Position numbers and translations under genes: made by a program. DNA of 64,000 nt, from positions 341,863 to 405,862 of the forward strand of contig OZ244034.1 in the NCBI GenBank assembly GCA_965215185.1. The letters run 5' to 3'. The notes below the pieces were generated by a model. That model was not told where the DNA came from, searched no databases, and worked only from the letters and a program-made list of their open reading frames with translations. This document shows, in pieces, positions 8,561 through 54,084 of this stretch (position 1 is its first letter; each line of letters begins with the position of its first letter). The DNA is from Acidimicrobiia bacterium. Lineage in GTDB: Bacteria; Actinomycetota; Acidimicrobiia; Spongiisociales; ZC4RG35.

Positions 8561-8605
8561 CGGGTTTCTCGGGGCTCCCCATCAAAGAAGTAAGGAGCGC
8601 CGTTC

Positions 8606-9637: not shown

Positions 9638-9741
9638 GGCGTCGGCGGGTCTTGAGTTTATTGGGTACGGCCAGAGCCGAATAGGACCTAGACGGTGCGA
9701 CGGATGCCGCCCGGTATGGTGACCCTGCGGGTGAGGGACCT

Positions 9742-18834: not shown

Positions 18835-18880
18835 TGCTCTTGGCCGAATTCAGGCTCAACGGGTTCTGAAACTGATAGCT

Positions 18881-19849: not shown

Positions 19850-20034
19850 GCTGATAACTTAATCGTTTCCTCAAGACTGCCACAGAACGTGGAGATCTGG
19901 TTTAGCTGAGAGGACCCCGGTTCATCAAGTGCCCGCTGGGGCTGAACTGGAACCACCTGCACCCTCTTTCATCGGACGATTGCCACCATGCTCCGGTCTC
20001 CTGAGCAACTGTGGATGACCGCTCTCGCATGGGA

Positions 20035-20066
20035 TGGGGCCGAGACCCCATCCCATGCGATTACGA
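20035..20066. other. 13-bp-arm GC-rich stem-loop in the SBP-permease intergenic region of the peptide ABC operon
   Basis: 'gcatgggatgggg ccgaga ccccatcccatgc'. The position fits an intra-operon mRNA-stabilising or attenuating hairpin downstream of the SBP gene. Confidence 0.35.
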
Positions 20067-20085
20067 GACAGACTTGAGTCAACTA

Positions 20086-29900: not shown

Positions 29901-31021
29901 TTAGGGGGTTCGGGGTGTTGGTGGTGGGTTTTCGAGTAGTCGGTAGAGGTGGCGGGCGATGTACCGTTTGAGGCAGCGGCGGGTTTCGCGGGTGGTTTTT
30001 CCTTGGGCGGTGCGTTTGGCGATGTAGGCCCGGGTTTTGGGACAGTGTCGGGTGCGGGTGATGGCGATGGTGTGGAGGGCTCGGTTTAGTTGGCGGTCAC
30101 CGCGTCGGTTTAGTCGGTGGCGGGTTTGTTGTCCTGAGGAGGCTTGGAGGGGGGCTACGCCGGCCAGGCGAGCGAAGGCGGCTTCGTTGCGGTATCGGCC
30201 TGGGTGGGACCAGGCGATGTAGATTTGTGCGGCGGTGATGGGGCCTATCCCGGGTTGGTCGAGCAGCTGGGGAGCGACGGTTTCGACCAGTTTGGCGATG
30301 GGTGTTTGCAGTTCTGCTATTTCGGTGGTGAGCGTGCGGATACGCCGGGCTACAGATCGCATGGCCATTTTGGTGGCGGTGTGTTCGTTTCGGGAACCAG
30401 GGGTTGGTTGACTCGGTCGGAACTTGTGGCACTTGGTGATCAAAGCGGTGGTGGTGAGACTTCGGAGTTGGTCTCTGAGATCGACCGGCGCGGTTACTAC
30501 CAGGGCTTTGAGCGCGTTATGGCTGCTATCCGGGCGGTTTGGGCGCCTTGGCGGGTGGTTTCCAGTACTCGGAGGGCTTCTCGGTCTCCCCGAGCGCGGG
30601 GTACCGAAGGCCGGCGTCCCAGCGCCTGGCGGGCGGCTCGTCGAGCGTCCAGCGCGTCGGTTTTGGCGCCGTCGCGGGTCGGGTAGGGATGGTTGAACTC
30701 TATTACCCACTCGCCAGCAGCGCCAAGATAGGTGGCGGCCCCTGTTCCGTAGCTGTCGGCGCCTTCCACCGCCCACGCCCGTTCTGCGGATGTGTGCTGG
30801 TTTGCCCACTCCAACATCTGGGCATATCCGCCGCTGGTTGTCCCAAACCGTGCGGACGCCAACTCTGCGGTGGTGGAAGCGTCCACCACCGACGCGGTTA
30901 CCCAATCACGATCAGGATCGATCCCGATCACATGGTCTACCATTGTGGCCAACATAAGAAAACCTTCTCTTTCTTGTGAAACTGGGCTGTTCGCCTCACG
31001 AGGCGCAAACCGTGACGGCAA
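29901..31021 (-). CDS. IS110-family transposase, copy c (complete C-terminus; DEDD N-domain and C-domain in different frames, so frameshifted or pseudogene)
   Basis: ORF 30497-31021 = 'MLATMVDHVIGIDPDRDWVTASVVD...' (N-domain). ORF 29901-30905 carries '...LKALVVTAPVDLRDQLR...AARLAGVAPLQASSGQQTRHRLNRRGDRQLNRALHTIAITR...' in another frame. Confidence 0.75.
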
Positions 31022-31136
31022 GACTGTGATGGGTCACACCAATTTTGGTGGACAAGCTTCTGATCAGGCCAGCAACGCAAACGCCCAGAAGGCGCAGTGG
31101 GCGGTATCGGACATATCCCTATAAAAGACACAACGG

Positions 31137-32171
31137 TCATGGTTGTTGTGGGTCACGACACCGCCTACTGACGCCTATCCTGGCAACCTCTAAGGAGGCT
31201 CCCCTAATACTCACAGCGTTGTTGGCTTGGCGGTCGCCGCCCCGGTTGAGCCGGTGGCGTATGGTCCGTCCCGACGACGCCTGGACGGGACTGGCGCCGC
31301 ACAATGCTGCGAAGGACGCTTCCGATTGCATGCGTTCGGGGTTGTCACCAGCGGTGACCAACAGGGCAGCGGCGGTGTCGGCGCCGACTCTGGAGGCGGC
31401 TAACAGCGCCGGGTTGACCTGGGCGCAGAGATGGTTGATCTGGGTGGTGAGTTCTTCGATCTCGGCGGTGAGCGCCTGATATCGGCGGGCCAGGGAACGC
31501 AGCGCCTTTTTGGCGTAGGTGACGGTGATGGTGGCTGTTCGGGGACGGAAACCGGCGCAGGCCTTGACGCGGGCTTTGGCCGGCAGTCTCTCTAGCTGGT
31601 GTTTGACCTGGTCGGGGGCGGTTACCACCAAAGCGTGCAGCTGGTTTATGGCCTGGGTGCGGGCTTTGGTCGCCGAACGGCGGGCCACCGAAAGCATCCG
31701 TATTGCTTCCACCCGACCGTTGCCGCTTTTGGGCACTGCGGTGGCCTGTCCGTTGAGAACCGCCCGTGCCGCTCCTTGGGCGTCGGTGGCGTCGGTCTTG
31801 CCCAACCGGCGGCGCAGCTGCCGGTTGGGACGGTTCACCTCTGTCACCTCGACACCGGCCTCGGTTAGATAACGGGCCAGGCCGGCGCCGTAACTGCCGG
31901 TGCCCTCTATACCGACCCGGACCACTCGACCGTGTGACCCCAACCAGTCGCCCAGTTGCTGATAACCGGCCGTGTCGGCCACGAAGGAGGCTGTTCCCAG
32001 GACCCGACCGGTGCTGTCCACCACCGCCGCCATGTGAACATCCCGGTGGGTGTCCACCCCACCGCACACATCTACCTGCTGACCTACTGACATGAACAAT
32101 CCTCCTTGGATAGAATTCTGGCTAATCACCCAGACCCGGTGGCGGGTGGACAGATCAAGCCAAAGGCACAA
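31137..32171 (-). CDS. IS110-family transposase, copy b (divergent paralogue; C-terminus cut after 'RLNRGGDRQAN' by copy c)
   Basis: 'MSVGQQVDVCGGVDTHRDVHMAAVVD...SFAALCGASPVQASSGRTIRHRLNRGGDRQAN'. The final ~60 residues of a normal IS110 transposase are missing, and the next copy's left end starts there. Confidence 0.8.
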   Translation of the reverse strand: MCLWLDLSTRHRVWVISQNSIQGGLFMSVGQQVDVCGGVDTHRDVHMAAVVDSTGRVLGTASFVADTAGYQQLGDWLGSHGRVVRVGIEGTGSYGAGLARYLTEAGVEVTEVNRPNRQLRRRLGKTDATDAQGAARAVLNGQATAVPKSGNGRVEAIRMLSVARRSATKARTQAINQLHALVVTAPDQVKHQLERLPAKARVKACAGFRPRTATITVTYAKKALRSLARRYQALTAEIEELTTQINHLCAQVNPALLAASRVGADTAAALLVTAGDNPERMQSEASFAALCGASPVQASSGRTIRHRLNRGGDRQANNAVSIRGASLEVARIGVSRRCRDPQQP

Positions 32172-32216
32172 CGGCCAGGTTGAGTTTGGGTCAGACCTGC
32201 CCCGGCCTAGGGGCCC

Positions 32217-33101
32217 TTACAAGTATGAGTGGTTGAGTTGGCGGTCGCCTCGTCGGTTGAGTCGGTGGCGGGTGTGTTGCCCCGAAGACGCTTGGAGAGG
32301 GGCTACGCCGGCCAGGCGAGCGAAGGCGGCTTCGTTGCGGCAGCGGCCTGGGTGGGACCAGGCGATGAGCACTTGGGCGGCGGTGATGGGACCTACCCCG
32401 CGCTGGTTCAGCAGTTGCGGAGCTGCGGCTGTGATCATTTCGGCGATGGGCGTTTTCAGCTCTGCTATTTCATTGTTGAGGTTGCGGATGCGTCTGGCTG
32501 TAGAACGTAGGGCTTGTTTGGTGGCGGTGAGTTCGTTGACGGGTGCGGGTGGGATTCGAAACACCGAGCATTTGGCCACCAGAGCAGTTGTGCTCAGACC
32601 TCGGAGTTGGTCCCGAAGATCGACCGGAGCGGTTACTACCAGGGCTTTTAGCTGGTTGATCGCCGATACTCTGGCCCCTTGGGCGCCCTGGCGGGTGGTT
32701 TCCAACACTCGCAAGGCTTCGCGGTCTCCCCTGGCCCGCGGTACGGATGGCCACGGGCGGCCCAGCACTTGGCGGGCGGCCCGGCGGGCGTCCAGTGCGT
32801 CGGGTTTGGCGCCGTCGCGGGTCGGGGCGGGATCGTTGAACTCTTTCACCAGTTCCCCTCGGGCGATAAGGTAACCGGTCACGCCGGCTCCGTAACTGCC
32901 CGAGCCTTCCACCGACCACACTCGACCGGCGGCCTGGGTGTGCTGGTCGGCCCATTTCAACAACCGGTCATACCCTGACCGGGTGGTTCCGAACACTCCG
33001 GATGCTTGTTCTCCGGTAGTGGCGGTGTCAACTACTGAGGCGGTGACTCGGTCCCGATCAGGATCGATCCCGATCACATGCTTTACCATTGTGGCCAACA
33101 T
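32217..33101 (-). CDS. IS110-family transposase, copy a (C-terminus cut after 'RLNRRGDRQLN' by copy b)
   Basis: 294 aa from 'MLATMVKHVIGIDPDRDRVTASVVD' to '...HRLNRRGDRQLNHSYL*'. In the ORF track it is read through from the upstream host gene as one 685-aa ORF. Confidence 0.8.
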   Translation of the reverse strand: MLATMVKHVIGIDPDRDRVTASVVDTATTGEQASGVFGTTRSGYDRLLKWADQHTQAAGRVWSVEGSGSYGAGVTGYLIARGELVKEFNDPAPTRDGAKPDALDARRAARQVLGRPWPSVPRARGDREALRVLETTRQGAQGARVSAINQLKALVVTAPVDLRDQLRGLSTTALVAKCSVFRIPPAPVNELTATKQALRSTARRIRNLNNEIAELKTPIAEMITAAAPQLLNQRGVGPITAAQVLIAWSHPGRCRNEAAFARLAGVAPLQASSGQHTRHRLNRRGDRQLNHSYL

Positions 33102-33365
33102 AAGAAACCTTCTCTTTCTTGTGCGAACTGGGCTGGTGCCTCGCAAGGCGCAAACCGTGACGGCAGGACTGTGACGGGTCACACCCTGTGGGTGGACAGG
33201 CTTCTGATCAGGCCAGCAACGGAACGCCCAGGGGCGTCGCGGCGGTGTCGGACATATCAAGTCAAAGAAACAAAGGTCAGAGTGGCCTCGGGTCACGACA
33301 CCACCGCTGACGCCAATCCTGGCAGCCTCTACAAGGCCCCCCAATACCCACAGAGCGGCCTGTGA

Positions 33366-34274
33366 CTCCAGCTCCAGCAGGGTTTTTTGGTGTGGTGTGG
33401 CGGCAATCTCCCTTGCCGAGCGATTGGCCAGGGCTTGTGGAAGATCAGCCAGAAGATCCGGCTGCTGGCCGGCTGCCGGTGGGGAATAGCCACCCAACAG
33501 CCTTAACACGGTTCCAAGTTCCATGTACTCCCCATCGCCCAAAGCGATGTTTCTTTCCCCACACAGAGCTACCCCTCCTGCTCCTATGACGCTTAGTTCT
33601 CCTTTTCCGAAGTCGATCACCGCCACGGTGTGTTCATCCACTCCGATTATGCCCAAACCGGCGGGAAGCATGGCTTTCAGCAGTTCAAATCGCCGGCGCC
33701 CCATGTAGCACCGGCTCGTGTCGAAGCCCTGGCCCTCGGTGTTGTTCCAGTGTGGAATGAACACCGCCTCCAGGCCCAGATGGGAGGTGAGGTCCAATCC
33801 TTCCAGCCACCCCAGCCCGGAGCCCACTTTGTAGATCTCGTAGACGGGAAGAGTCTTCACTCCGGCCGTGAGGGCGGCGGCCGACGCCACTGTCACGGTG
33901 GCGCCAGTCGAGAGAAGATCTCGCAGCGCCGAGGCCAGCGGCGTCTCTTTCCACACTCCCAAGGCATAGGTAGGCGATCCCGGTCCGGCGAAGACGTAAC
34001 GGGCGCGGCGGACGGCGGCCAGCATCTCTTCGCAGGCGAGGGCGCCCGCTTCGGCAGAGCGGTAGGAGACCACCCCCGCCTCTATGGACAGGCTGGTGGT
34101 GAAAAAGGTAGCCAGCTTTTCGGAATTGAGGGTGGCGTTCTCCTGGAATCCGTAGGGGGTGTCGAGCACCAGCACTTGATGGGCCTTGGCCGCTTCGATC
34201 CCCAGCCGATGGGCAGCTAGCAGCCGATTGGAGGTCTCTCCAGATCCCATGAGAATCAGGCGTCCCGCTCTCAA
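33366..34274 (-). CDS. GATase1-like/peptidase S51 (cyanophycinase-like) family protein, 3' end disrupted by IS110 copy a
   Basis: N-terminal ~300 aa 'MRAGRLILMGSGETSNRLL...VLVLDTPYGFQ...' reads with no stop into the IS110 left end. The family call is weak. Confidence 0.3.
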
Positions 34275-40362: not shown

Positions 40363-40730
40363 CCGGCAAGGGGTCAACGTTGACAGCAGACCCGAGGTTG
40401 GTCGGCAAAGTGGGAAAAGACGGCCCGGTCTGAGTTTGACTCGGCCGCATCTTTGGTCACATGATGTGGGTAGCTGCAAAACCCCTTCGGTGCGGGCATC
40501 GGGCTCACCCGGACCGAAAAGCCCGAAGGCACGCATGCGAGAATATCCACAAGCAGGCGCGGCCCTTCTCGCATCCAATCGGTGGTGGCGGCGGGTCACT
40601 GCCAAGGGCAGTGGGCTTGCCTTATGGCCTGCTAGGGGACTGGCGAGTGTTCAATGCGGGTTCTGCGAAGGCTTCGCGACATTACCGGGTGACTTAGCCC
40701 ATATCCCTGCCAAACCTACCAAGAAGCAGT

Positions 40731-40770
40731 GGTTGGGTTTGGTCGGCGGGAGCGCCGACCAAACCCAACC
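40731..40770 (-). terminator. intrinsic terminator hairpin (18-bp perfect stem, GGAG loop) immediately downstream of the minus-strand OpuAC gene
   Basis: 'ggttgggtttggtcggcg ggag cgccgaccaaacccaacc', 13 nt after the stop of the 40783-41712 gene. The minus-strand tail 'actgcttcttgg' is only moderately U-rich. Confidence 0.55.
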
Positions 40771-40782
40771 TGATAGTGAAAG

Positions 40783-41712
40783 TTATCCTCGTGCTGTTGC
40801 CAGCCAGCTGTCGACTTTGTCGCGGTTGGCGGCGATCCAGGCTTGGGCGTCAGCTTCGATGTCAGCCTCGGTGTAAGCTCCGGCGGCCATTTTGGTGTTT
40901 TGAGCTGCGATGTCACTCAACGGAATTGCCATCACCTCGAGGAGACGGCGGATATCCGGGTTGTCATCCAGGAAGTCGGTGTTGGCCACCGCCCGGATGT
41001 CATTCACGGAGGACTGCAGCCATACCGCATTCTCGCCTGCCACCAAAACGGTGTTTGTCCAGTTGGGCGTCCAAGCGTAGAACAGCGCCGGTTCACCAGC
41101 GGCTACCGTCGCCACAACGCCTCGGGCCAAGTCGTCGTAATCACCAGAGACCTGCTCGACGTTGGCGCCCCAACTGAGATCGGCGATCTGTTGGTTGATG
41201 GAGGTTTCGCATCCCCATCCGACGTTGCATCCGAACAGGTCGGCCTTGCCGTCACCGTCGGTGTCGAAGAGGCCGGCGTTGGCGGCCACGCCATCCATCG
41301 AGGTGATTCCCATTCTGTCAGCCGTGGCCTTGTCGACCATCAAGCCGTCGGTAGCCCCATCATCCACCTGCCAGCCGACAGGTTCGATGGGCAACTCGAC
41401 CGCCTGGCCGGTTACATTTTCTCCTTCCAAGTATATGTCGTGGATGGGGAACCAGCCATTGGCCCACAGGTCGTACTGGCCGGTGGCCAGGGCGGGATAG
41501 AACGAGTAGGGGCTCAGTTCGGCGGCGGCCGGATCGGTCACCTCGTGTCCAAGCTCCTCGATTAGCGCGGCGTAGATGGCGGCCTGCATGTAGCCCGAAC
41601 TCCAGTTGGCCCGAGCGATCTTCACCGGCCCGGCAACTTCGTCGGTGGCGCAAGCCGAAAGCATCAGCACGAAAGCCGCAAGAGCGGCCGTCAATACGTT
41701 CGTTTTCTTCAT
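40783..41712 (-). CDS. glycine betaine/choline-type substrate-binding lipoprotein (OpuAC/ProX family)
   Basis: Signal peptide and lipobox 'LMLSAC'; 'VKIARANWSSGYMQAAIYAALIEELGHEV' and 'DLWANGWFP' are typical OpuAC motifs. Its start overlaps the stop of the BCCT gene by 4 bp. Confidence 0.8.
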   Translation of the reverse strand: MKKTNVLTAALAAFVLMLSACATDEVAGPVKIARANWSSGYMQAAIYAALIEELGHEVTDPAAAELSPYSFYPALATGQYDLWANGWFPIHDIYLEGENVTGQAVELPIEPVGWQVDDGATDGLMVDKATADRMGITSMDGVAANAGLFDTDGDGKADLFGCNVGWGCETSINQQIADLSWGANVEQVSGDYDDLARGVVATVAAGEPALFYAWTPNWTNTVLVAGENAVWLQSSVNDIRAVANTDFLDDNPDIRRLLEVMAIPLSDIAAQNTKMAAGAYTEADIEADAQAWIAANRDKVDSWLATARG

Positions 41713-43481
41713 GACTCTTCACCTCCTACTCCCAGTCTCTCGATCAAGCCGCTGTGCTGGGATTGGAAGATGGCTGCGTCGTAGTGACTCTCTAGGAGGT
41801 CGAGCTCTTCATCGAAGGCCTTCTTGAGGCTATACAACATGATCAAAAGCACGAACAGGAATGGCAGTCCGGTAGCCACAGCCGCCGTTTGGAGCGCCGA
41901 CAGGCCACCTCCTATCAGCAACACGACCGCTACCAGGCCTTCCATCAACGCCCAGGCCACTCTCTGGGGCTTGGGCGAGTCGAGTTTTCCTCCTGAGGTG
42001 AGGTGGTCCACCACCAGAGATCCCGAGTCCGAAGAGGTAACGAAGAACGAAACCAACAGTAAAACGCCGACTATCGAGATGAAGTTGGTCCATGGGAAGG
42101 CCTCCAACATCACGAACAGGGCGGTAGCAACGTTTTCGTTGACCGCAGTAGCAACGTCCAGTTCGCCACGCATTTGCAGATCCATGGCCGCTCCGCCGAA
42201 GACCGCAAACCACAAGAAGCACAGTAGGCAGGGAAGGACCATCACACCGAGGATCATTTCCCGCACCGAGCGCCCCTTAGAGATTCGAGCGATAAACATA
42301 CCGACGAAGGGAGACCAAGAGATCCACCATCCCCAGTAGAAGATGGTCCACCACTGTTGCCATTGGGTATCGACCAAGGCGGCGTTCCAGAACGAAAACT
42401 CCGGGAGCACCTGGATGTAGACACCGATGCTTTCAACATACAGCGAGAGAATCAACAAAGTGGGACCCACCGCGAGCACAAAGACCAAGAACGCCCCGGC
42501 CAGCCACACGTTGATCTGGCTCAGCCTCTTGACCCCGGCGTCCAGGCCCGCCACAACCGAGATGGTTGCCAACCCGGTGATAACGGCGATAAGAACGATC
42601 TGAAAACCGGTGCCCGAAGGGAGACCGAAGAGCTTGTTCAACCCCGCGGCCGCCTGTCCGGCGCCGAACCCCAGTGAGGTGGCAAGACCGAAAAGGGTGG
42701 CCACCACGGTGAGGACGTCGATCGCGTTGCCCCATCCACCGTAGATCCTCTTACCGAGAATCGGATAGAAGACCGAACGGAAAGTCAGTGGCAAGCCTCG
42801 GTTGTAGGCAAAGAACCCCAAAGCCAGTGCTACCAGTCCATACAGCGCCCATCCATGGACCCCCCAATGGAGGTAGGAGGTCGCCAGTGCGGCTCTGGCC
42901 GCGCCAGATGACAAGGGTTCCACGTCGAACAAGGGAGGCGGCGCTGTGAGGTGGAAGATTGGCTCTGCCACACCCCAGAACATCAACCCGATGCCAATAC
43001 CGGCGGAGATCAACATTGCGTACCAAGCGCCCGAGGAAAACTCCGGAAGAGCTCTTGGCCCACCTAATCGAATCTTGCCGTACCTGCCAAACGCAAAGTA
43101 GAGCGCGGCACCGATGAAGATGTTGAATGAGATGATGTACAGCCAACCCACCTTCTCGTTGATGAAGTTGAGAATGGTGCCGAAGACACCACTGGCCTGA
43201 TCTGGGTAGAACAAAGTGGCCAGGATGAAGACCAACATGAATCCGGCAGCGGAGAACGTCACCTGCGGATGAATGTCGAATCCATACTTGACGATGTTCC
43301 TGTCACCGGGCTCGCGATCCGCAACATCTGGATAGAAATCGATGTCGGGGTCGATTTGGAGGCCTTCGAACTGGGCTCGATTACGGATCGCCGCCTCGCG
43401 ACGGCTTTCCTCTTTTTCCTCCCAGTCTTCGTAGGCTTCCGCAACCGTGGTGAGATCAAGATCTTGGTCTTTGTCAGCCAT
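41709..43481 (-). CDS. BCCT-family betaine/carnitine/choline transporter
   Basis: 590 aa with ~12 TM helices. The BCCT signature region 'WTIFYWGWWISWSPFVGMFIARIS' is diagnostic. Confidence 0.85.
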   Translation of the reverse strand: MADKDQDLDLTTVAEAYEDWEEKEESRREAAIRNRAQFEGLQIDPDIDFYPDVADREPGDRNIVKYGFDIHPQVTFSAAGFMLVFILATLFYPDQASGVFGTILNFINEKVGWLYIISFNIFIGAALYFAFGRYGKIRLGGPRALPEFSSGAWYAMLISAGIGIGLMFWGVAEPIFHLTAPPPLFDVEPLSSGAARAALATSYLHWGVHGWALYGLVALALGFFAYNRGLPLTFRSVFYPILGKRIYGGWGNAIDVLTVVATLFGLATSLGFGAGQAAAGLNKLFGLPSGTGFQIVLIAVITGLATISVVAGLDAGVKRLSQINVWLAGAFLVFVLAVGPTLLILSLYVESIGVYIQVLPEFSFWNAALVDTQWQQWWTIFYWGWWISWSPFVGMFIARISKGRSVREMILGVMVLPCLLCFLWFAVFGGAAMDLQMRGELDVATAVNENVATALFVMLEAFPWTNFISIVGVLLLVSFFVTSSDSGSLVVDHLTSGGKLDSPKPQRVAWALMEGLVAVVLLIGGGLSALQTAAVATGLPFLFVLLIMLYSLKKAFDEELDLLESHYDAAIFQSQHSGLIERLGVGGEES

Positions 43482-43663
43482 CGCGGCTCCCTTCTAATCG
43501 CAAATCCATCATCGGCGTCTCCTTTCAGTAGCCCAACAACGGCTGACCGCACTGTTCAGGGGCGGCTTGAGAAAGACCATAGCCAATGACGGCCCGCCGA
43601 ATTGCAAAAACCGCACAAAGTTTCTAACCTTCTCCGGTTTTCTTTTTCCTCCCCCTTCCCATA

Positions 43664-45793
43664 TTGGTTGCTAATCTTCGGTCTACCCCTTACCTCTGGA
43701 TGCCGTCCATGCGCCGAATCGTCTTCACAGCCTTGGGAACACTGACGGTCTCTTGGGCACTGCTCCTGGGGGCTGGCATGGCGATAGGCCAGCCCGAGGA
43801 GGACTCATCCGCAGAACCCACCGTGCGGATAGCGCGCGCCACATGGGACACCGGTTGGTTTCAAGCCGAGGTTTACCGGCTGCTCATCCAACGGCTTGGC
43901 TATCGGGTGGAGGGCCCGTTCACCATGGACAATGACGAGTTCTATGAGGCTTTGGCAGCCGGCGAGGTGGATCTTTGGGCCAACGGGTGGTTCCCAACCC
44001 ACGACTCTCACATTCGGGTGGGAGTGGTGGAAACGGTGGGTACTCAGGTCGATGACGGCGCGCTGCAGGGATACTTTGTCGATAAGGCCACTGCCGAGAC
44101 TCATGGCATCACCAGCCTGGGTGACCTGGCCGCTCCGGAGATTGCCGCCCTGTTCGATCGGGACGCCGACGGCTTGGCCGATCTGATCGGGTGTGAAGTT
44201 TCCTGGGGATGTGCGGCGATCATCGAGCATCACCTTGAGGCATATGGGTTGAAGGAGACCGTCGAACAGGTGCAAGGCGCCTACTCGCCTCTGATAACCG
44301 AGACCATAGACCGCTACCACGCCGGTCAACCGGTCCTCTTCTATACCTGGACCCCTAACTGGACGGTGGGGGAGTTGGAGCCGGGTCGGGAGGTTATCTG
44401 GTTGGAGACGCCGTTCCCTTCCCTTCCCGCCGACCAGATCGCCTTCTTGGACCGGACGGCCATTGCCGGGATTCCCGGATGCGCCAATGATCCGTGTCAG
44501 GTGGGCTGGCCTCCCAATGACATCCGGGTGGTGGCCAACTCCGGTTTTCTGGAGAACAACCCTTCGATTCGGAGGCTGCTGGAACAAGTGGTCATTTCCC
44601 TCCACGACATCTCCGCCCAGAACGCGCTGATGGTTGCCGATGAGGGCGATCCTGAGGACATTCGCCGCCATGCTGAGGAGTGGGTGGCGGCCAATGAAGT
44701 AGTGGTTACTCGCTGGATCGAGACTGCCGACCCCAACGCGGTCGGTTTGCAAAACCTCCAAGGGGACGAGTCGGCGTCGGGAGGGACGTTGAGAGTGGCG
44801 GCGCGCGCCCTCCCGCCTTTCGTTATTTATGAGAATCGGGCGTACAACGGCTTTGAGGTGGAATTGGTGCGCCTTCTTGCTGCCCGGTTGGGCATGGAAG
44901 CCGAGATATATGCGGTGGACACTGTCGCCAAGCAAATTGACGACGTTAACCGCGGTGTAGCCCGAGTGGCGTTGGGAGGGGTGGCCATCACGGAGTCGCG
45001 CGAGCAGGTGGTGGACTTTTCTATGCCGGTTCTCGATACGGGTCTGACCATCTTGGCCCCCACTCACGCCTCACGCGGTCTCGGAGACCGGATCGGGACA
45101 TTCTTCACGGCCATCGTCTCCTCGGACCTGCCCTGGTTGCTAGTGCTCTTCGGGGTGGCAGTCCTGATCTCCGCCCATGTGATCTGGTGGTTGGAACGTA
45201 ACCACAACACCGATTTCGCCGTGCCCTACCGGCAGGGTATCTGGGACTCGTTCTATTGGTCGGTCGTGACCATGAGCACGGTCGGATATGGTGACAAGGT
45301 GGCTCGGGGAAGCATGGGGAGAGTATTCGCCCTAGTATGGATCGCCCTGGGGACGCTGGTGTTCGCCAGCTTCACCGCCTCGATAGCCTCCTCGCTGGCG
45401 GTCAACGAGTTGCGCAGTGAGATCTCCGGACCCCAGGACCTGCCTGGTCACCGAGTGGCGACGGTGACGCGCTCTGCCGGGGAGACCTATCTGTCCACCA
45501 TAGGGGTGGGTTCGGTTCCGGTGGATGATATTGAGCAAGCCTATGGTCTCTTGGCGGAGGGCGATGTTGATGCCATCGTGTTTGATGCTCCGGTTCTCCG
45601 TTTTCACGCCGCTCGGGAGGGGCAAGGTGAAGTGGCCACATTCGGGCCGGCGTTCGAGAAGGTGCAATACGGGCTGGCGGTCAGTGAGGATGACGCCGAG
45701 TTCCGAGAACGGCTCAATCTTGCTCTGTTGGATCTGATCGAAAGTGGCGTCTACGGACAACTCCATGACCGGTGGTTCGGCGCTTTGGGCTGA
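43664..45793 (+). CDS. GluR0-type ionotropic-glutamate-receptor-like ligand-gated K+ channel with an extra N-terminal OpuAC (betaine-binding-like) domain
   Basis: aa ~50-355 are paralogous to the adjacent OpuAC protein ('VRIARATWDTGWFQAEVYRLLIQRLGYRV', 'DLWANGWFP'). aa ~370-470 form SBP_bac_3 lobe 1. Next come M1 'LPWLLVLFGVAVLISAHVIWWL', pore helix + filter 'FYWSVVTMSTVGYGD' (TVGYGD = nt 45278-45295), and M2 'VFALVWIALGTLVFASFTASIASSLAV'. aa ~575-709 form SBP lobe 2. Confidence 0.75.
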   Translation: MVANLRSTPYLWMPSMRRIVFTALGTLTVSWALLLGAGMAIGQPEEDSSAEPTVRIARATWDTGWFQAEVYRLLIQRLGYRVEGPFTMDNDEFYEALAAGEVDLWANGWFPTHDSHIRVGVVETVGTQVDDGALQGYFVDKATAETHGITSLGDLAAPEIAALFDRDADGLADLIGCEVSWGCAAIIEHHLEAYGLKETVEQVQGAYSPLITETIDRYHAGQPVLFYTWTPNWTVGELEPGREVIWLETPFPSLPADQIAFLDRTAIAGIPGCANDPCQVGWPPNDIRVVANSGFLENNPSIRRLLEQVVISLHDISAQNALMVADEGDPEDIRRHAEEWVAANEVVVTRWIETADPNAVGLQNLQGDESASGGTLRVAARALPPFVIYENRAYNGFEVELVRLLAARLGMEAEIYAVDTVAKQIDDVNRGVARVALGGVAITESREQVVDFSMPVLDTGLTILAPTHASRGLGDRIGTFFTAIVSSDLPWLLVLFGVAVLISAHVIWWLERNHNTDFAVPYRQGIWDSFYWSVVTMSTVGYGDKVARGSMGRVFALVWIALGTLVFASFTASIASSLAVNELRSEISGPQDLPGHRVATVTRSAGETYLSTIGVGSVPVDDIEQAYGLLAEGDVDAIVFDAPVLRFHAAREGQGEVATFGPAFEKVQYGLAVSEDDAEFRERLNLALLDLIESGVYGQLHDRWFGALG

Positions 45794-48439: not shown

Positions 48440-49675
48440 ATGAGTAAACGCAGATCTTGGGTACGTGCCTTTGTGGTGTTGTCCGTTCTGGCCTTGGTCG
48501 CCGCCTCCTGTGGCGACGGATCAGATGAGGTGGCGCCCACCACGGCCGCGCCCACCACAGCGGCGCCCACCACGGCCGCTCCCGAGCCCATCATGTTGGG
48601 AACCATTTGGTTCAACTCAGGTGTGGCTGTTGGGCTGGGCGACATTATGCGCAATGGGTTCGACCTAGCCGTGAAGCAGCAGAATGAGGCCGGTGGTGTC
48701 TTGGGACGTCAAGTCGAGGTGGTCGACTACGACGAGGGCTATTCGGCTGATGAGTCGGTTGCCTCAGCCCGCAAGGCGATCGCCGATGGTGTGGCTGGCA
48801 TTGCCGGGGGCAACGACGCCACCACTTGTGTGGCGATGAAGGATGTCGCGGCCGAGGCGGGGATCCCCTTGGTGGTGACCGCCTGCGGTTCGGAACTGAT
48901 TACGGCCGAGGGCTATGAGGGAGTGGTGCACGTCCGGGCTCCGGTGAAGCAGAGCCAGTCCGACAGCAACGCCCTATCCGTGTTGGCCCGGTGGATGATT
49001 CAGCAGGGCTACAACCGCGTGCAGGGCGTAGGTGTCGACTCTGACTGGGTGCGACTCACCCATGACGAGTTCACCCGCATCTTCGCGGAGGAAGCTCCCT
49101 CCGACTTTGAGTACACCGGTATGGTGTACTTCCCCTATGGAACGGCTGAAGCCCGGATTGAAGTGACCAAGGGCGTCGGCAATGATCCCGATCTTCTGTA
49201 TCTCGGGCTGTGGGGCAAGGACGTGGTAGTCAACGCCGTGCAAGCCGCCCGCGAGATCGGCTATGAGGGTGACATCATGATCAACGAGGTCGTGTTCACT
49301 CCGCCTGAAGTGGAAGCCTTGGGCGATCTTGCCGAGGGTGTTTACAGTTCGACCGGGTGGATTCTGGATGAGTCCATTCCGGAGGCGGCGGCCTTCTCCG
49401 CGGCGTACGAGGCCGAATACGGGTCGGCCCCGGATTGGTGGTCCGAACTGGGGTATACGGCTGCCCAGCAGTTGATGGCGGCTATCGAAGCAGCCGGCAC
49501 CACCGACTACGCGGCGGTCGCTCCGCTGATGAATGATGAGCATGGATTTATCACCCCTCGTGGTAAGCCGTTGCGTTTCAACGACAAGGGCCTGCGACTG
49601 GTCGACGACTGGATCATCATCCAATCCCAGGGCGGCGTCCTGCTGCCGGTGGATGCCGTTCCTCTCGCTGGCTAG
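48440..49675 (+). CDS. branched-chain-amino-acid/amide-type ABC substrate-binding lipoprotein (LivJ/Peripla_BP_6 family)
   Basis: Signal peptide and lipobox 'LVAASC', an 'APTTAAPTTAAPTTAAP' linker, and a type-I periplasmic-binding-fold body. It lies upstream of a LivHMGF set. Confidence 0.8.
   Translation: MSKRRSWVRAFVVLSVLALVAASCGDGSDEVAPTTAAPTTAAPTTAAPEPIMLGTIWFNSGVAVGLGDIMRNGFDLAVKQQNEAGGVLGRQVEVVDYDEGYSADESVASARKAIADGVAGIAGGNDATTCVAMKDVAAEAGIPLVVTACGSELITAEGYEGVVHVRAPVKQSQSDSNALSVLARWMIQQGYNRVQGVGVDSDWVRLTHDEFTRIFAEEAPSDFEYTGMVYFPYGTAEARIEVTKGVGNDPDLLYLGLWGKDVVVNAVQAAREIGYEGDIMINEVVFTPPEVEALGDLAEGVYSSTGWILDESIPEAAAFSAAYEAEYGSAPDWWSELGYTAAQQLMAAIEAAGTTDYAAVAPLMNDEHGFITPRGKPLRFNDKGLRLVDDWIIIQSQGGVLLPVDAVPLAG
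48533..48580. repeat. tandem 15-bp repeat x3 (gcgcccaccacggcc) encoding the APTTA linker
   Basis: Read directly. Confidence 0.5.
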
Positions 49676-49770
49676 TTAGATCCTTCCATAAATAGTGATG
49701 TATCGGTCTGCGCCCATCTATCTGGGCCAGACCGATACACCCTACGGATAACCAAGGAGGCTGGGCCAAA

Positions 49771-50169
49771 GTGAAGAGAGTTTACGTACCAGTCGAAGAG
49801 GCGCTGTTCAAGGCCATCGGGTCAAAGAGCCGTTGGAACGATGTGGTCCGAGTAGGTAATACCATGTGGGTCACCGGGCAACTGGGCTGGGATCGCAGCA
49901 CCGGAGTGCTGGCGGATACCTTGGAGGAGCAGACGGAACTGGCTCTCCAAAACCTCGAGAATGCCTTGAGCCGCGCAGGGGCCGCCTTGAGTGATGTGGT
50001 GCTGACCAGGATCTATCTGACCGATCATGACCACTACCACCGCTACGAGGTCATCTACAACCGCTATTTCCCCAGCCAGCAGCCCGCTCGGGTCTCGGTG
50101 GTGGTGGCGGAGCTGATCCACCACTCACTGATTGACATCGAAGCCGTAGCAGTGGTGGATGAGGAGTGA
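49771..50169 (+). CDS. RidA/YjgF-family reactive-intermediate (enamine/imine) deaminase
   Basis: 132 aa. 'VVRVGNTMWVTGQLGWD' and 'ARVSVVVAELIHHSLIDIEAVAVV' match the chorismate-mutase-like RidA fold. Confidence 0.8.
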   Translation: MKRVYVPVEEALFKAIGSKSRWNDVVRVGNTMWVTGQLGWDRSTGVLADTLEEQTELALQNLENALSRAGAALSDVVLTRIYLTDHDHYHRYEVIYNRYFPSQQPARVSVVVAELIHHSLIDIEAVAVVDEE

Positions 50170-50226
50170 CTGGTTCCCGACGCATTGGACCTTCTTGGTG
50201 TCGCTCTCTAATCCAATGAGAAGAAC

Positions 50227-50556
50227 ATGATCAAGACGGTGACTTTGCTGAACAGGAGGCCCGACCTGACCAGCGAGCAGTTTCATGAGCATTGGAAGAC
50301 TGTCCATGCTGCTCTGGTGCTGGCCATGCCCAGGGTGCGGCGTTATGTTCAATGTCGACCCTTGGAGGTTCCCGGTCGCGAGGCGCCCTGCGACGGTGTT
50401 GCCGAGGTGTGGTACGAAAGCGTCGAGGATTTTCTGGCCACGGCCGCTTCCGAAGAATACGTCCGGCTCTTAGCCGACGAGAAGAACTTCATGGGCGCCA
50501 AAACTCAGGACTCGGTGTTCGTGATAGTGGAAGAGGACGAGTTTCCTGTTGAATAG
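50227..50556 (+). CDS. EthD-domain / Dabb-like small alpha+beta-barrel protein
   Basis: 109 aa. 'FHEHWKTVHAALV' and the length fit the EthD family. Weak. Confidence 0.45.
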   Translation: MIKTVTLLNRRPDLTSEQFHEHWKTVHAALVLAMPRVRRYVQCRPLEVPGREAPCDGVAEVWYESVEDFLATAASEEYVRLLADEKNFMGAKTQDSVFVIVEEDEFPVE

Positions 50557-50571
50557 ACTCACCGGCCACAG

Positions 50572-51381
50572 ATGACTGCTGCTCCTGACAACCAGCGTGG
50601 ATCTCTATCCAAGGGATTGCGCATCCTGGCCTCTTTCGACGAGAAGTCCCCTGCTCTGACCATCGCCGACATCTCGCGGCGCACCGAGATCAGCCGGGCC
50701 AGCGTCTACCGACTCACCGGCGTCCTGGAGGAATTGGGATACATACAGAGGGATGAACGATTCTTCCGTCCCTCCAGTAAGGTGCTGAAACTGGGAGTGG
50801 CGGCCGTCGAATCCCGGGAGTTCGTTGAGCACATTCGACCCTATCTGGATCAGATAAGCGCATTGCTTCCCCAGGCCACCGCCATCAACTATGGGGTGCT
50901 CGAAGGGACCGACATCATTTACCTAGCCCGTCGGCATCAAGACGACATCATCACCATCAACCTACGGGTGGGGAGTCGCCTTCCCGCTTATCTCAGTTCG
51001 CTGGGCAAAGCAATCCTTTCCGCCATGCCCCCCGCAGATGTGGAGGAGGTGGTGGCGCAAATGAGTTTCGAGCGACGGACCTCCACCACCATCACCAGCG
51101 CAGATCGCTATCGGGCGGAGGTGGAGCAGGCTCGCGTGAAAGGGATCGCGGTTAATGACCAGGAACTAACCATGGGGCTGCGCTCGGTTGCCGCTCCGGT
51201 CTTCCATGGATCGGAAGTGATAGGGGCGGTAGGAGTGGCCACGCTGGTCATAAGAGCGGATCTTGAGACTTTGGAGAACGATTACGGCCCGGTTCTGCAG
51301 TCCTTCACGAAAAAGATCAGCGAGGAGATATCCGCCATAAGGCTCGACAACCGGGTCCCAATCTACGCTAGCCATGAGTGA
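50572..51381 (+). CDS. IclR-family transcriptional regulator
   Basis: N-terminal wHTH 'LTIADISRRTEISRASVYRLTGVLEELGY' and a C-terminal IclR effector domain 'GIAVNDQELTMGLRSVAAPV'. Confidence 0.8.
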   Translation: MTAAPDNQRGSLSKGLRILASFDEKSPALTIADISRRTEISRASVYRLTGVLEELGYIQRDERFFRPSSKVLKLGVAAVESREFVEHIRPYLDQISALLPQATAINYGVLEGTDIIYLARRHQDDIITINLRVGSRLPAYLSSLGKAILSAMPPADVEEVVAQMSFERRTSTTITSADRYRAEVEQARVKGIAVNDQELTMGLRSVAAPVFHGSEVIGAVGVATLVIRADLETLENDYGPVLQSFTKKISEEISAIRLDNRVPIYASHE

Positions 51382-51429
51382 GACAGGTCCGTATAGGTCG
51401 GGTGTTTCAGGCAAGGGGAGGTCTGGACG

Positions 51430-52293
51430 ATGAACTGGGACATCATCGGCCAGCAGCTTTGGAACGGCCTTCTCAACGGCTCCATTTACGTGATTTTCGC
51501 GGCCGGATTGAGCTTGGTGTTCGGAGTGATGCGGGTGATCAACATGGCGCACGGGGAACTAACCATGCTCGGCGCCATGATCTTGTACACGGTGACCAAG
51601 CTGGTGGGTTTGGGGTACTTTGTCGGCGCGGGCGTGGTGGTGGTGATAATGGGCCTGGCCGGTTTCCTAGTCAACCGGGTGGCGGTCCGACCTTTCTTGG
51701 GTCAGTCGGAACTGGTGGTGATCCTCTCCACGGTCGCGCTCAGTTTCATGTTGTTGCATGGCAGTTTTGTGGTGTGGGGGTCGGAGCCGAAGGGTGTGGA
51801 CGAGCCGTTCAATGAAATCCTCAAGGTGGGGGGCGTCTACATCACTACCGCCGGTTTGCTTTTGGTGGGCGTGTGTTTCACTGCGGTGCTGGCTTTGTAC
51901 CTGATACTCACCCACACCAAGCTCGGGAAAATGACCCGCGCCACCGGCCAGAACCTGCTTGGGGCTCGCCTGATCGGCATCAATACAACGGCAATCTACG
52001 ATGCGACTTTGATCATTGCCTCCGGTTTGGCGGCGCTGGCCGGAGTGCTAATAGTCCTTGTGTCGACCGCGTCTCCCAACCTGGGCCAGCCCCTTCTTAT
52101 CACCGGTTTCGCGGTTGTAATTGTGGCCGGAATGGGCAATGTTGGGGGTGCGGTGGCGGTGGGACTGTTCCTGGGTGTCACCGAAGCATTATTCGGCCAG
52201 TTCATCTCCACTTACTATCGGCAGGGTTACCTGTACGTGGTGATGATCATTGTCCTGCTGCTGCGGCCGCAGGGTTTGTTCGGGAGAAGGTGA
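51430..52293 (+). CDS. branched-chain amino acid-type ABC permease (LivH-like)
   Basis: 287 aa with 8 TM helices and LivH-type topology. Confidence 0.85.
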   Translation: MNWDIIGQQLWNGLLNGSIYVIFAAGLSLVFGVMRVINMAHGELTMLGAMILYTVTKLVGLGYFVGAGVVVVIMGLAGFLVNRVAVRPFLGQSELVVILSTVALSFMLLHGSFVVWGSEPKGVDEPFNEILKVGGVYITTAGLLLVGVCFTAVLALYLILTHTKLGKMTRATGQNLLGARLIGINTTAIYDATLIIASGLAALAGVLIVLVSTASPNLGQPLLITGFAVVIVAGMGNVGGAVAVGLFLGVTEALFGQFISTYYRQGYLYVVMIIVLLLRPQGLFGRR

Positions 52294-52294
52294 G

Positions 52295-53317
52295 ATGCGT
52301 TTGAGACTGGGTCCGGGGTTCTGGATCGGGATTCCGACGCTGGTGATTGCGCTGTTGGTGCCGCTCACCCTCTTTACGAACCCCTACAACCGCGGGTTGC
52401 TGGTGTTGATTGTGATCTACGCCATAGCCGGTCTGAGCCTCGACTACATCATGGGGGAGATGGGGCAATTCTCGTTCGGACATGCCGCCTTCTGGGGTTT
52501 CGGTGCTTATGTTTCCGCCAAACTCGCCCTCGACCTGGGCATTTCACCATGGCTCGGTTTTGTGGCCGCCCCTTTGGCGGCCGGCTTGGTGGGTCTATTG
52601 ATCGGCTATGTGGCTTTGCGCAGGACCCGCGGGTTGGAGTTGGCGATCGTCACCCTCGGGTTCGGGGTGCTGGCGTGGACGGTGGCTTTGCGGTGGAGGT
52701 CGGTTACCGGCGGCCCGTCAGGACTGCGCCAGATTCCTCCGCCCAGCCTCTTTGGTTGGGAGATACGTTCGGAATTGGCCTACTTCTATTTCGCCCTCTT
52801 GTTGCTTCTGGGGGTGATCTTCATCTTGGGGAGGTTGCGGAAGTCGCGTTTCGGAAGAGGAGTGCGCAGCATTCACGAAAATGAGGATCTTGCCAGATCC
52901 ATCGGTGTTGCGGCCACCAAATACTACGTATTTGCCTTCGCATTTGCATGCGGGTTGGTGGGGTTTTCCGGAGCGTTGTACGCCCACCATTTCAGATTTG
53001 TCAACCCCAACCTTCTCGGTCTGCAGCCCATGTTCATCTTTTTGATAATTGTCTTGGTAGGCGGAACGGGGACCTTGTGGGGCCCGGTGTTCGGTGCGGC
53101 GATCTTTGTACTGGTGAGTGAGTGGTTGCGAGCTCTTCAGGAGTACCGGTTTTTGATTTTCGGGGTGGTCTTGCTGCTGGTGGTGCTATTCATGCCCAGC
53201 GGCGTGTACCCGGCGCTCCGGAACGCCCTGACGCGGCGTGGGGCGCGACACGGCCCTCAAGCTACCTCCGTATCTGCGGTTGAGGCCCCCGGGCCGGATG
53301 AGTCTGAGGTGAGATAG
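52295..53317 (+). CDS. branched-chain amino acid-type ABC permease (LivM-like)
   Basis: The ATG at 52295 lies 1 nt after the LivH stop; the upstream part of the ORF is an over-extension. TM-rich 340 aa. Confidence 0.8.
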   Translation: MRLRLGPGFWIGIPTLVIALLVPLTLFTNPYNRGLLVLIVIYAIAGLSLDYIMGEMGQFSFGHAAFWGFGAYVSAKLALDLGISPWLGFVAAPLAAGLVGLLIGYVALRRTRGLELAIVTLGFGVLAWTVALRWRSVTGGPSGLRQIPPPSLFGWEIRSELAYFYFALLLLLGVIFILGRLRKSRFGRGVRSIHENEDLARSIGVAATKYYVFAFAFACGLVGFSGALYAHHFRFVNPNLLGLQPMFIFLIIVLVGGTGTLWGPVFGAAIFVLVSEWLRALQEYRFLIFGVVLLLVVLFMPSGVYPALRNALTRRGARHGPQATSVSAVEAPGPDESEVR

Positions 53318-54084
53318 TGCCGATACTGCAAACCACGGGGCTCACCAAGCTGTTCGGTGGCCTGTCGGCGGTCGACGATTTGGATCTTCGTGTGGAGGAG
53401 GGCGAGATCATGGGTTTGATCGGTCCCAACGGCTCCGGGAAAACCACCGCTCTGAACCTGATAACCGGTTTCATCAAACCCACCCGCGGCGGGGTGACTT
53501 ATCAGGGAAACGACATAACCGGCGCTCAGCCTCAAGATCTCGCCCGCGTGGGATTGGTTCGTACTTTCCAGATAACCACGCTCTTTGAGAATCTCAGGGT
53601 TCGGGACAACGTGCTCCACGGCAGCCATCTTGCCAACCCGACATCCTTGGTGGGAGCTTTGACCCGTTCCCGCAAGTACCGGGAGCAGCAGGCCACCATG
53701 GAAGAACGAGTATGGGAATTGCTCGAATTCGTGGGTCTTCAGGGCCGCATCGACGCGATGGCCCGTGACCTCTCGGCGGGTGAGCACCGCTACCTGGAGA
53801 TTGCTATCGCCCTGGCGGCCAACCCCAAGATGCTGCTGCTCGACGAACCGGCGACCGGACTGAACCCGGAAGAGGCCGGCTTTTTGATGAGTCTGATCAG
53901 GACGTTGAGAGATCGGGGGGTGACGGTGCTGCTCATCGAGCACAATATGCGACTGATCATCAACATTTGCACCCGGATCACGGTGCTGAATTTCGGCGCC
54001 AAGATCGCCGAAGGCTCGCCTGAGGAGATCGTGGGCGATGAAGCCGTTGTGGCGGCCTATTTGGGGAAGAGGCGCGGTGCTTGA
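53317..54084 (+). CDS. ABC ATP-binding protein (LivG-like)
   Basis: Walker A 'GPNGSGKTT', signature 'LSAGEHRYLEIAIAL', Walker B 'LLLDEPATGL'. Confidence 0.85.
   Translation: MPILQTTGLTKLFGGLSAVDDLDLRVEEGEIMGLIGPNGSGKTTALNLITGFIKPTRGGVTYQGNDITGAQPQDLARVGLVRTFQITTLFENLRVRDNVLHGSHLANPTSLVGALTRSRKYREQQATMEERVWELLEFVGLQGRIDAMARDLSAGEHRYLEIAIALAANPKMLLLDEPATGLNPEEAGFLMSLIRTLRDRGVTVLLIEHNMRLIINICTRITVLNFGAKIAEGSPEEIVGDEAVVAAYLGKRRGA

Follow-up and report, generated by a model that had tools for sequence, protein, structure and literature searches.

Binding proteins are thought to be limited to ABC, TRAP and TTT transporters, plus the recently proposed TAXI-GltS system. According to a review text, only the ABC, TRAP and TTT families recruited such proteins, and the pair BP0403 and GltS of Bordetella pertussis, whose genes are co-localised and translationally coupled, was put forward on these grounds as a new secondary transporter that depends on a binding protein; GltS and the other binding-protein-dependent secondary carriers are described as elevator-type (PMC12344293). 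An OpuAC-type compatible-solute binding protein with a non-ABC partner is also found in CosB/CosT of Halobacterium salinarum (PMC8050422). In TRAP (DctPQM) and TTT (TctABC) systems, ion-gradient-driven carriers are fed by an extracytoplasmic binding protein. Carriers of the BCCT family have a LeuT-type fold, and to our knowledge the known ones (BetP, OpuD, TmaT) operate without a binding protein.

The locus described here lies in a 64,000-nt stretch of DNA (the window) from an Acidimicrobiia bacterium (assembly GCA_965215185.1, contig OZ244034.1, positions 341,863-405,862 of the forward strand). It consists of a BCCT carrier gene overlapping a gene for a ProX/OpuAC-type lipoprotein, followed by a hairpin, and its features are compiled in Table 1. 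The pairing suggests a new kind of binding-protein-assisted carrier; a literature search found no description of a BCCT plus binding-protein pair or of a ProX-channel fusion. As in TAXI-GltS, the two genes are co-localised and translationally coupled, and an orphan binding protein without TRAP or ABC membrane genes is joined to what would be a Na+ symporter for the same ligand class, the components being a TAXI-type protein with GltS there and a ProX/OpuAC-type protein with a BCCT carrier here. The LeuT-type fold of BCCT carriers, set beside the elevator-type precedents, speaks against a carrier with a dedicated binding protein. Any resemblance to TRAP and TTT would be functional only, as neither component is homologous: Pfam identifies only BCCT and OpuAC in the pair, with no DctQM/TctAB and no DctP/TAXI/TctC. 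The partner of CosB is a chemotaxis transducer, whereas the gene coupled to the binding protein in the window encodes a transporter.

Table 1. Features of the BCCT/binding-protein locus and the neighbouring channel gene (positions within the 64-kb window; the pair and the hairpin lie on the minus strand).
Feature	Position	Strand	Basis or detail
BCCT-family secondary carrier, 590 aa	41709..43481	-	Pfam BCCT, TIGR00842
ProX/OpuAC-type substrate-binding lipoprotein, 309 aa	40783..41712	-	OpuAC, NCBIfam ProX
Translational-coupling junction	41709..41726	-	GGAGG Shine-Dalgarno 41726-41722 and ATGA stop/start overlap 41712-41709
Intrinsic-terminator-like hairpin	40731..40770	-	Perfect 18-bp stem, 4-nt loop, weak T tail
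Leader ORF, 11-12 codons	43474..43512	-	M(M)DLRLEGSRDG, Shine-Dalgarno AAAGGAGA
Divergent intergenic region, BCCT gene to channel gene	43482..43708	.	Direct sequence reading
GluR0-type K+ channel with N-terminal ProX domain	43664..45793	+	OpuAC, SBP_bac_3, Lig_chan, Ion_trans_2
Channel ProX-like domain, aa 53-356	43820-44731	+	
Channel ligand-binding lobe S1, aa 375-470	44786-45073	+	
Channel pore M1-P(TVGYGD)-M2, aa 488-580	45125-45403	+	
Channel lobe S2, aa 585-707	45416-45784	+	

The BCCT carrier, its binding protein and their junction

The carrier belongs to the BCCT family (TC 2.A.15) by a full-length family-model match above the curated cut-off: it covers 485/485 profile positions of Pfam BCCT (PF02028, E 4e-186, 620 bits) and passes TIGR00842 with 496 bits (cut-off 407). 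Like BetP, OpuD and TmaT, which are likewise full-length BCCT proteins with a GXGXG motif and a tryptophan box, it carries the latter in TM8 (WWTIFYWGWWISWSPFVGMF) and the former as AGIGIG, a marker of Na+-coupled BCCT members (PMC11708041). The predicted function of the 590-aa protein is Na+-coupled symport of quaternary amines of the betaine type. As the score against the glycine-betaine equivalog NF047988 (546 bits) stays below the cut-off of 650, the substrate is inferred and not assigned by the model. Among solved structures, TmaT, a Na+/TMA symporter (8zw8, 507 bits), is nearest, followed by BetP, and alignment to TmaT proceeds almost without gaps across 492 aa; the carrier shows no additional extracytoplasmic docking element and looks entirely canonical. 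Two differences in detail are an isoleucine at the position of TmaT Met105 and a C-terminal tail of ~30 aa, compared with roughly 55 aa for the osmosensing tail of BetP. The near gap-free match to TmaT, which needs no binding protein, is an observation against the carrier having a dedicated one.

The binding protein has a signal peptide with the lipobox LSAC, matches OpuAC (PF04069) with E 3e-36 and passes NCBIfam ProX (NF008334; 232 bits, cut-off 215). E. coli ProX (1r9l) is its best match both in sequence (phmmer, E 1e-41) and in fold (E 4e-17, with an AF2 model of only moderate quality, pLDDT 72). In the binding protein, W, H and C occupy the positions of the E. coli ProX aromatic cage (W65/W140/W188), of His69 and of the Cys pair 136/142, and the same residues are present in the ProX domain of the channel and in homologues, except for a Y at the W188 position of one homologue; the comparison of ligand pockets proposed in the sequence-only reading therefore finds the cage intact in both proteins. 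A loop of ~33 aa in E. coli ProX is missing from the binding proteins of the window clade. ProU of E. coli (ProVWX) and OpuA of B. subtilis and L. lactis contain a ProX homologue with the same Trp cage and Cys pair, and the binding proteins of Gram-positive OpuA systems are also membrane-tethered or fused; the gene in the window differs in being coupled to a BCCT gene with no adjoining ATPase or permease. The protein is tethered to the membrane in every case, in ~19 species through an N-terminal TM anchor and otherwise through a lipobox, and the BCCT-linked proteins are monophyletic (97/100 bootstraps). ProX-type domains of this family are widely reused outside transport, occurring in fusions with Ser/Thr kinases, channels, SLH/LRR and further modules that have no transport role.

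At the junction, the Shine-Dalgarno sequence of the binding-protein gene sits inside the BCCT 3' end, and the stop/start overlap noticed earlier can be read directly as ATGA, with both reading frames at the coordinates of Table 1. Among 82 homologous junctions the overlap amounts to -4 nt in 58 and to -8 nt in two (60/82 together), the remaining junctions having a gap of at most 31 nt. The hairpin that had been proposed to close the operon stands as well: a 76-nt stretch folds with -43 kcal/mol (z = -7.05, matched by 0/200 shuffles), and almost every relative in which the binding-protein gene is operon-terminal has a similar long hairpin immediately after the stop of that gene, with weaker structures where the channel gene comes next co-directionally.

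On the upstream side, the TGA stop of the leader ORF overlaps codons 2-3 of the BCCT gene. Position, length and Shine-Dalgarno sequence of this ORF are kept in essentially all analysable loci of the window clade and in two further loci (L037, L043), and its peptide sequence is variable. The leader ORF is the only conserved part of an otherwise poorly conserved intergenic region, in which no sigma-70-like site was found, and a conserved operator or promoter was therefore rejected. The same results give no support to the shared divergent promoter of ~180 bp that was to co-regulate channel and transporter, and neither does the channel gene lying co-directionally downstream or convergent in 10 other species. 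With the channel starting at ATG 43709, which is most likely the true start since homologues have 694 aa, the region would also measure ~227 bp rather than ~180 bp.

Conservation of the pair and its association with the channel

The pair is carried by sponge-associated and marine actinobacteria of ~80 species. A BCCT gene lies directly upstream of the binding-protein gene, and in the same direction, in 77/77 GTDB species loci with adequate upstream sequence, and the pairing is kept down to 53% identity of the binding protein across two actinobacterial classes. It persists while the neighbours change, one locus (L003) lying in a different neighbourhood and another (L080) being flanked by Na+/H+ exchangers. 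Adjacency in all 77 loci and overlap in 60 of the 82 junctions show that the pairing is no accident. As a control, outgroup ProX sequences were used to seed a scan of metagenomes: among these next-closest ProX relatives, ProW was adjacent in 57/80 loci, in the canonical proVWX arrangement, and BCCT coupling was seen in 0/80; the scan returned canonical proVWX loci and no further BCCT pairs.

The three-gene synteny with the channel, for which a check in related genomes had been suggested, is conserved likewise: among the species loci with adequate flanks, the channel gene adjoins the pair in 74/75, in three different arrangements. It is missing at L080, the single informative Nitriliruptoraceae locus, and of the two loci of this family that speak for a pair independent of the channel, only this one is flanked by sufficient sequence.

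When 1.84 billion representatives were searched with a profile of the binding protein, 967 matches were obtained, among the best 150 of which no BCCT-ProX fusion was present, and numerous other ProX fusions were seen. Fused homologues exist for TAXI-GltS; their absence for the BCCT pair among these 150 representatives is a further observation against a carrier with a dedicated binding protein. A 919-aa ORF in L080 that looked like a fusion proved to be a reading-frame artefact caused by the high GC content of the genome.

Partners of the binding protein and alternative explanations

In the sequence-only reading the absence of an OpuAA/OpuAB ATPase or permease from the window was taken as a sign that the binding protein works outside an ABC importer. 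Indeed, a Pfam scan of 43/60 larger ORFs and tblastn searches with ProV and ProW of E. coli revealed no OpuAA/OpuAB in the 64 kb, the ProV/ProW matches being limited to ATPases of the Opp/Dpp and Liv types and one permease of the thiamine type. Along these lines, no ProVW was found within 10 kb of the pair in 79/80 species loci, in none of which the binding-protein gene has the neighbouring ATPase or permease of a ProU/OpuA operon. The one exception, L067, has a neighbouring ProW, which is adjoined by a separate third ProX. In the two loci with visible context, L067 and L165, ProW lacks an adjoining ProV, and in L165 it lies beside a transposase. ProW orthologues are rare in the clades that carry the pair: at 75% identity or above they form ~20 clusters, whereas the binding protein and the channel form more than 100 each, and no complete chromosome from the window clade carries one. 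This is suggestive, indirect evidence against an OpuA/ProU system elsewhere in the genome. With the BCCT gene upstream in every informative locus and outgroup ProX residing in proVWX, the placement of the binding protein outside the ABC organisation, and its tie to the BCCT carrier, hold.

These results bear on the view of an ordinary ABC binding protein with ProVW/OpuAA-AB encoded elsewhere, the BCCT adjacency being mere co-regulation of osmolyte uptake. The placement in NCBIfam ProX above cut-off and the ProW-type permeases in some related metagenome-assembled genomes would fit, but the invariant synteny with overlapping codons, the distinct clade of the binding protein, the scarcity of ProVW near the pair and of ProW orthologues altogether, and the fact that ProW, where present, mostly comes with a separate ProX-type gene in the same locus or stands alone without ProV make this improbable. 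A higher, though still low, probability is given to the free binding protein being a ligand sensor or allosteric regulator that switches the BCCT carrier, the channel or another transducer, and not a substrate donor. Orphan OpuAC-type sensors such as Halobacterium CosB/CosT are known (PMC8050422), ProX domains of the family are fused to the non-transport modules listed above, the channel is nearly always adjacent, and the junction overlaps would imply a carrier-coupled, non-excess expression that suits a subunit-like role. On the other hand, the channel has a ProX domain of its own, it is the BCCT gene to which the binding-protein gene is tightly coupled, the channel gene varying in position and orientation, the pair stands without the channel in L080, and no kinase or chemoreceptor gene is conserved near it. 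It is very improbable that the binding protein alone serves as a tethered surface solute buffer or retention device, or that the linkage is functionally meaningless; the carrier is without visible docking adaptation, which would fit, but order, orientation and overlap are strictly conserved in ~80 species, and unless co-expression is selected for, it is difficult to account for such conservation while the neighbouring genes change.

A possible osmolyte and K+ cassette

The reading we prefer, to which we give a chance slightly short of even, is a Na+-coupled betaine-type BCCT carrier with a dedicated membrane-tethered binding protein, functionally similar to TRAP, TTT and TAXI-GltS, within an osmolyte/ion-balance cassette. 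Leader ORF, BCCT gene and binding-protein gene would form one operon, whose products would be a Na+-coupled betaine-type symporter and a dedicated, tethered, high-affinity betaine-binding protein, kept in roughly fixed proportion, as we propose, by translational coupling. The binding protein would capture the quaternary-amine substrate on the external side of the membrane and, instead of working for an ABC importer, would pass it to the BCCT carrier or enrich it locally for the carrier. If true, a BCCT partner would extend the binding-protein principle to rocking-bundle (LeuT-fold) carriers, challenge the emerging link between binding-protein dependence and elevator-type transport, and explain how scavenging of low-concentration betaines could proceed without ATP in abundant sponge symbionts.

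In Acidimicrobiia the pair would belong to a three-gene cassette, the third member being a GluR0-type K+ channel with a paralogous, putatively betaine-binding domain. The fusion of an OpuAC domain to the divergent channel, already recognised in the sequence-only reading, is confirmed by Pfam matches to OpuAC (2e-50), SBP_bac_3/Lig_chan and Ion_trans_2 in one ORF, and the PDB matches are ProX 1r9l (4e-61) and the bacterial iGluR homologue 2pyy (5e-36). With SBP_bac_3 (aa 377-706) split around Ion_trans_2 (aa 498-578), Lig_chan and TVGYGD, the protein is of the GluR0 type; it shares with GluR0 the S1-M1-P-M2-S2 layout and the TVGYGD filter, but has an extra N-terminal ProX domain, which takes the place of the eukaryotic iGluR amino-terminal domain and belongs to another binding-protein class. 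Given this extracellular domain, we propose that the same external solute could tune K+ flux, which may allow K+/betaine exchange and offset the charge brought in by electrogenic uptake of Na+ and betaine. The fuller claim, namely that this would be the first BCCT (LeuT-fold) carrier with a dedicated binding protein and would form, with a betaine-sensing GluR0-type channel, an osmolyte/K+ exchange module in which the channel ProX domain is a prokaryotic analogue of the iGluR amino-terminal domain, is rather doubtful. The ProX-GluR0 channel would connect the sensing of compatible solutes with K+ homeostasis in a testable way and provide a natural three-layer bacterial iGluR architecture. The sole Rfam match in the window is a TPP riboswitch at 8445-8556, far from the pair. 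Public annotation labels the channel as 'ProX' only, so that it is mis-annotated.

The carrier operon and the divergent channel gene

The carrier gene and the gene of the ProX/OpuAC-type binding protein lie on the reverse strand, next to a K+ channel gene with an N-terminal ProX domain (coordinates are compiled in the table). A sequence-only reading had described a carrier stop overlapping the binding-protein start, a strong hairpin closing the two-gene operon and an OpuAC domain fused to the channel, and all three are present. The overlap reads ATGA (41712-41709), with GGAGG 9 nt 5′ of this start. Across loci, hairpins 3′ of the binding-protein gene are strong where this gene is the last one and less so where a co-directional channel gene comes next. 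Since the channel homologues comprise 694 aa, its true start is probably the ATG at 43709.

Features of the window around the carrier operon, and its ABC systems
Feature	Position	Strand	Remarks
Thiamine-type ABC system behind TPP riboswitch	8445-11304		
Opp/Dpp-type ABC system	16026-21813		
Perfect 18-bp hairpin	40770-40731	-	13 nt past the binding-protein stop; z = -7.05
ProX/OpuAC-type protein, 309 aa	40783-41712	-	passes PF04069 and NCBIfam ProX (232 bits, cut-off 215)
BCCT carrier, 590 aa	41709-43481	-	whole Pfam BCCT model covered, E 4e-186; passes TIGR00842
Channel	43664-45793	+	N-terminal OpuAC domain, then GluR0-type ligand-binding domain split by K+ pore (TVGYGD)
Liv-type ABC system	48440-54781		

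Among solved structures, the carrier comes closest to the Na+/TMA symporter TmaT (507 bits); next in rank are a BCCT-family transporter, a high-affinity choline transport protein and BetP. Because the alignment with TmaT is nearly gap-free, no extra extracytoplasmic docking element is seen in it. The GXGXG motif, which PMC11708041 gives as a marker for Na+ coupling in BCCT symporters, reads AGIGIG, the TmaT-specific Met105 is replaced by Ile, and with 546 the score stays under the NCBIfam betaine equivalog cut-off of 650. Judged by its sequence, the carrier looks canonical.

The residues W65, W140, W188, His69 and Cys136/Cys142 of E. coli ProX are identical in the aligned binding protein and recur in the N-terminal domain of the channel and in homologues, such that the aromatic cage is intact in both the free protein and the channel domain; in one homologue, Tyr replaces the W188 equivalent. 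A loop of ~33 aa in E. coli ProX is shared by the channel domain, but missing from the binding proteins of the window and its closest relatives. The AF2 model is of moderate quality (pLDDT 72), and its best fold match is ProX bound to glycine betaine (1r9l), ahead of ChoX, TmoX, DmpX and OpuAC. The ligand is therefore likely a quaternary-ammonium or sulfonium compound, its exact identity being inferred. The signal peptide terminates in the lipobox LSAC, and all orthologues are membrane-tethered; the anchor is a lipobox or, in ~19 species, an N-terminal TM helix that stays uncleaved.

Conservation of the pair and of its neighbours

A GTDB scan with the binding-protein alignment as query, one genome per species, returned 80 loci, which were annotated through tblastn searches using the window proteins plus ProV, ProW and ProX of E. 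coli. Most belong to sponge-associated lineages (Ca. Spongiisociaceae, Poriferisodalis, Poriferisocius, Aldehydirespirator), and the named homologues derive from metagenome-assembled Acidimicrobiia. In all 77 loci where the sequence extends at least 1.5 kb upstream, the binding-protein gene is immediately preceded by a BCCT gene in the same orientation; of 82 junctions, 58 have a stop/start overlap of -4 and two of -8, with gaps of at most 31 nt in the rest. The pairing persists down to 53% binding-protein and 65% BCCT identity, and includes two Nitriliruptoraceae loci, which come from another actinobacterial class. The neighbourhood varies while the pair is kept together: in one locus (L003) the genes are placed among cell-wall and pyrimidine genes, and in a Nitriliruptoraceae locus (L080, 5559-12171) the pair, with its ATGA overlap, is flanked on each side by a Na+/H+ exchanger gene, one of them encoding Usp domains, with neither channel nor ABC genes within 10 kb.

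More distant ProX relatives served as a control: a metagenome scan seeded with them gave 80 loci, of which 57 had ProW adjacent (canonical proVWX), one was channel-fused, 17 were too short to judge and none was BCCT-coupled. In a neighbour-joining tree the BCCT-linked binding proteins are monophyletic (97/100 bootstraps), as are the channel ProX domains (99/100). Together, the invariant upstream BCCT gene, the proVWX controls and the monophyly identify BCCT linkage as a derived trait that is stable within one clade of binding proteins.

Of the 75 loci whose flanking sequence suffices, 74 have the channel gene next to the pair; it is missing from the one informative Nitriliruptoraceae locus. 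In 64 loci it lies upstream in divergent orientation, in 8 it follows the binding-protein gene co-directionally, and in 2 it lies downstream in convergent orientation, so that of the synteny looked for among relatives the adjacency holds, whereas the divergent layout is not a conserved feature. A shared divergent promoter, also suggested earlier, is not borne out either, as neither a conserved operator nor a sigma-70-like promoter was found between the BCCT and channel genes. A leader ORF of 11-12 codons (43474-43512, reverse strand) with its own Shine-Dalgarno sequence lies 28-31 nt 5′ of the BCCT start, its TGA overlapping BCCT codons 2-3; it recurs at the matching position in loci of the closest relatives and in L037 and L043, variable in peptide sequence, conserved in position, length and frame, and may be a device for translational control or coupling.

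Of 725 matches to the channel, at least 120 of those listed are homologues with at least 71% identity, and public records name them merely 'ProX'. The channel resembles eukaryotic iGluRs in its three-layer architecture, but its top domain is of a different binding-protein class. Among representative proteins (P0361-P0510), ProX-type domains near this family recur in many non-transport fusions (tandem ProX; Ser/Thr kinase with Peripla_BP_4; SLH/LRR; caspase/PEGA; VWA; other binding-protein families), with a single ProW-ProX case.

The partner of the binding protein

The binding protein might serve an ABC importer of the ProV/ProW type. As the earlier reading had it, OpuAA and OpuAB are absent from the window, none of whose three ABC systems is OpuA/ProU-like, and 79 of the 80 species loci have neither ProW nor ProV next to the pair. 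In the exception, L067, a ProW-like permease is adjoined by its own third ProX, and ProV is absent. This ProW retrieved only ~20 close clusters (at least 75% identity), below which matches (at most 58%) come from other lineages, whereas binding protein and channel each have more than 100 clusters from these clades. No large contig listed among the ProW matches corresponds to a complete chromosome of the closest relatives, and one match on a chromosome bearing all three genes stands alone next to a transposase. More distant ProW homologues occur in ProV-ProW loci encoding their own OpuAC-type gene and genes typical of betaine catabolism. This argues, albeit indirectly, that these genomes can dispense with the ABC route and that it is self-sufficient where present.

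From sequence comparison, we think that the binding protein is dedicated to the BCCT symporter: the operon would supply a Na+-coupled symporter of betaine type together with a tethered binding protein of high affinity, which would be made at a coupled ratio and act by substrate hand-over or local concentration. The main alternative, a free binding protein acting as sensor or regulator, draws on CosB/CosT and on ProX domains being reused promiscuously in kinases and channels. The canonical look of the carrier and the lack of any BCCT-binding-protein fusion among the best 150 of 967 profile matches count against the carrier-dedicated reading. Recruitment of binding proteins is stated to be known in just three main families, ABC, TRAP and TTT; TAXI-GltS, in which translational coupling links an orphan binding protein to a Na+/glutamate symporter, has been put forward as a new class of transporter that depends on a binding protein (PMC12344293). 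TAXI-GltS is the closest precedent for the present argument, which would extend the mode of transport of TRAP, TTT and TAXI-GltS to the BCCT pair. The pair would be a case of binding-protein-assisted secondary transport, a kind already known; no description of a BCCT and binding-protein pairing, or of a ProX-GluR0 fusion, was found in the incompletely covered literature. The neighbouring ion-transport genes, which in Acidimicrobiia encode a K+ channel with a betaine-binding domain and in Nitriliruptoraceae Na+/H+ exchangers, would match what electrogenic Na+/solute uptake and the replacement of K+ by betaine entail for the ions.

Surrounding DNA

ProW-like permeases of unusual length (587-681 aa) with a TM-rich C-terminal extension occur without adjacent ProV in two genomes bearing pair and channel (L067, 11042-14499; L165, 9001-10764, beside a transposase) and may represent decaying or remodelled ABC systems. 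Relatives have nothing equivalent to the ~370 bp of non-coding DNA (40363-40730) that separates purB from the terminator hairpin, their gap being ~100 bp; this DNA has no repeat elsewhere in the window and no Rfam match. The TPP riboswitch (8445-8556, forward strand; RF00059, 65 bits) precedes a binding-protein gene and a 520-aa permease gene (8606-11304), probably a thiamine ABC importer. The stretch at ~11400-35200 has a lower GC content (0.50-0.57 versus ~0.60 elsewhere) and contains Opp-type ABC genes, an amidase, a phosphotriesterase-family gene, hydantoinase A/B genes and three IS110-family transposase ORFs (29901-34274); as the thiamine ABC genes adjoin purA in the relative L001, it looks like an inserted island.
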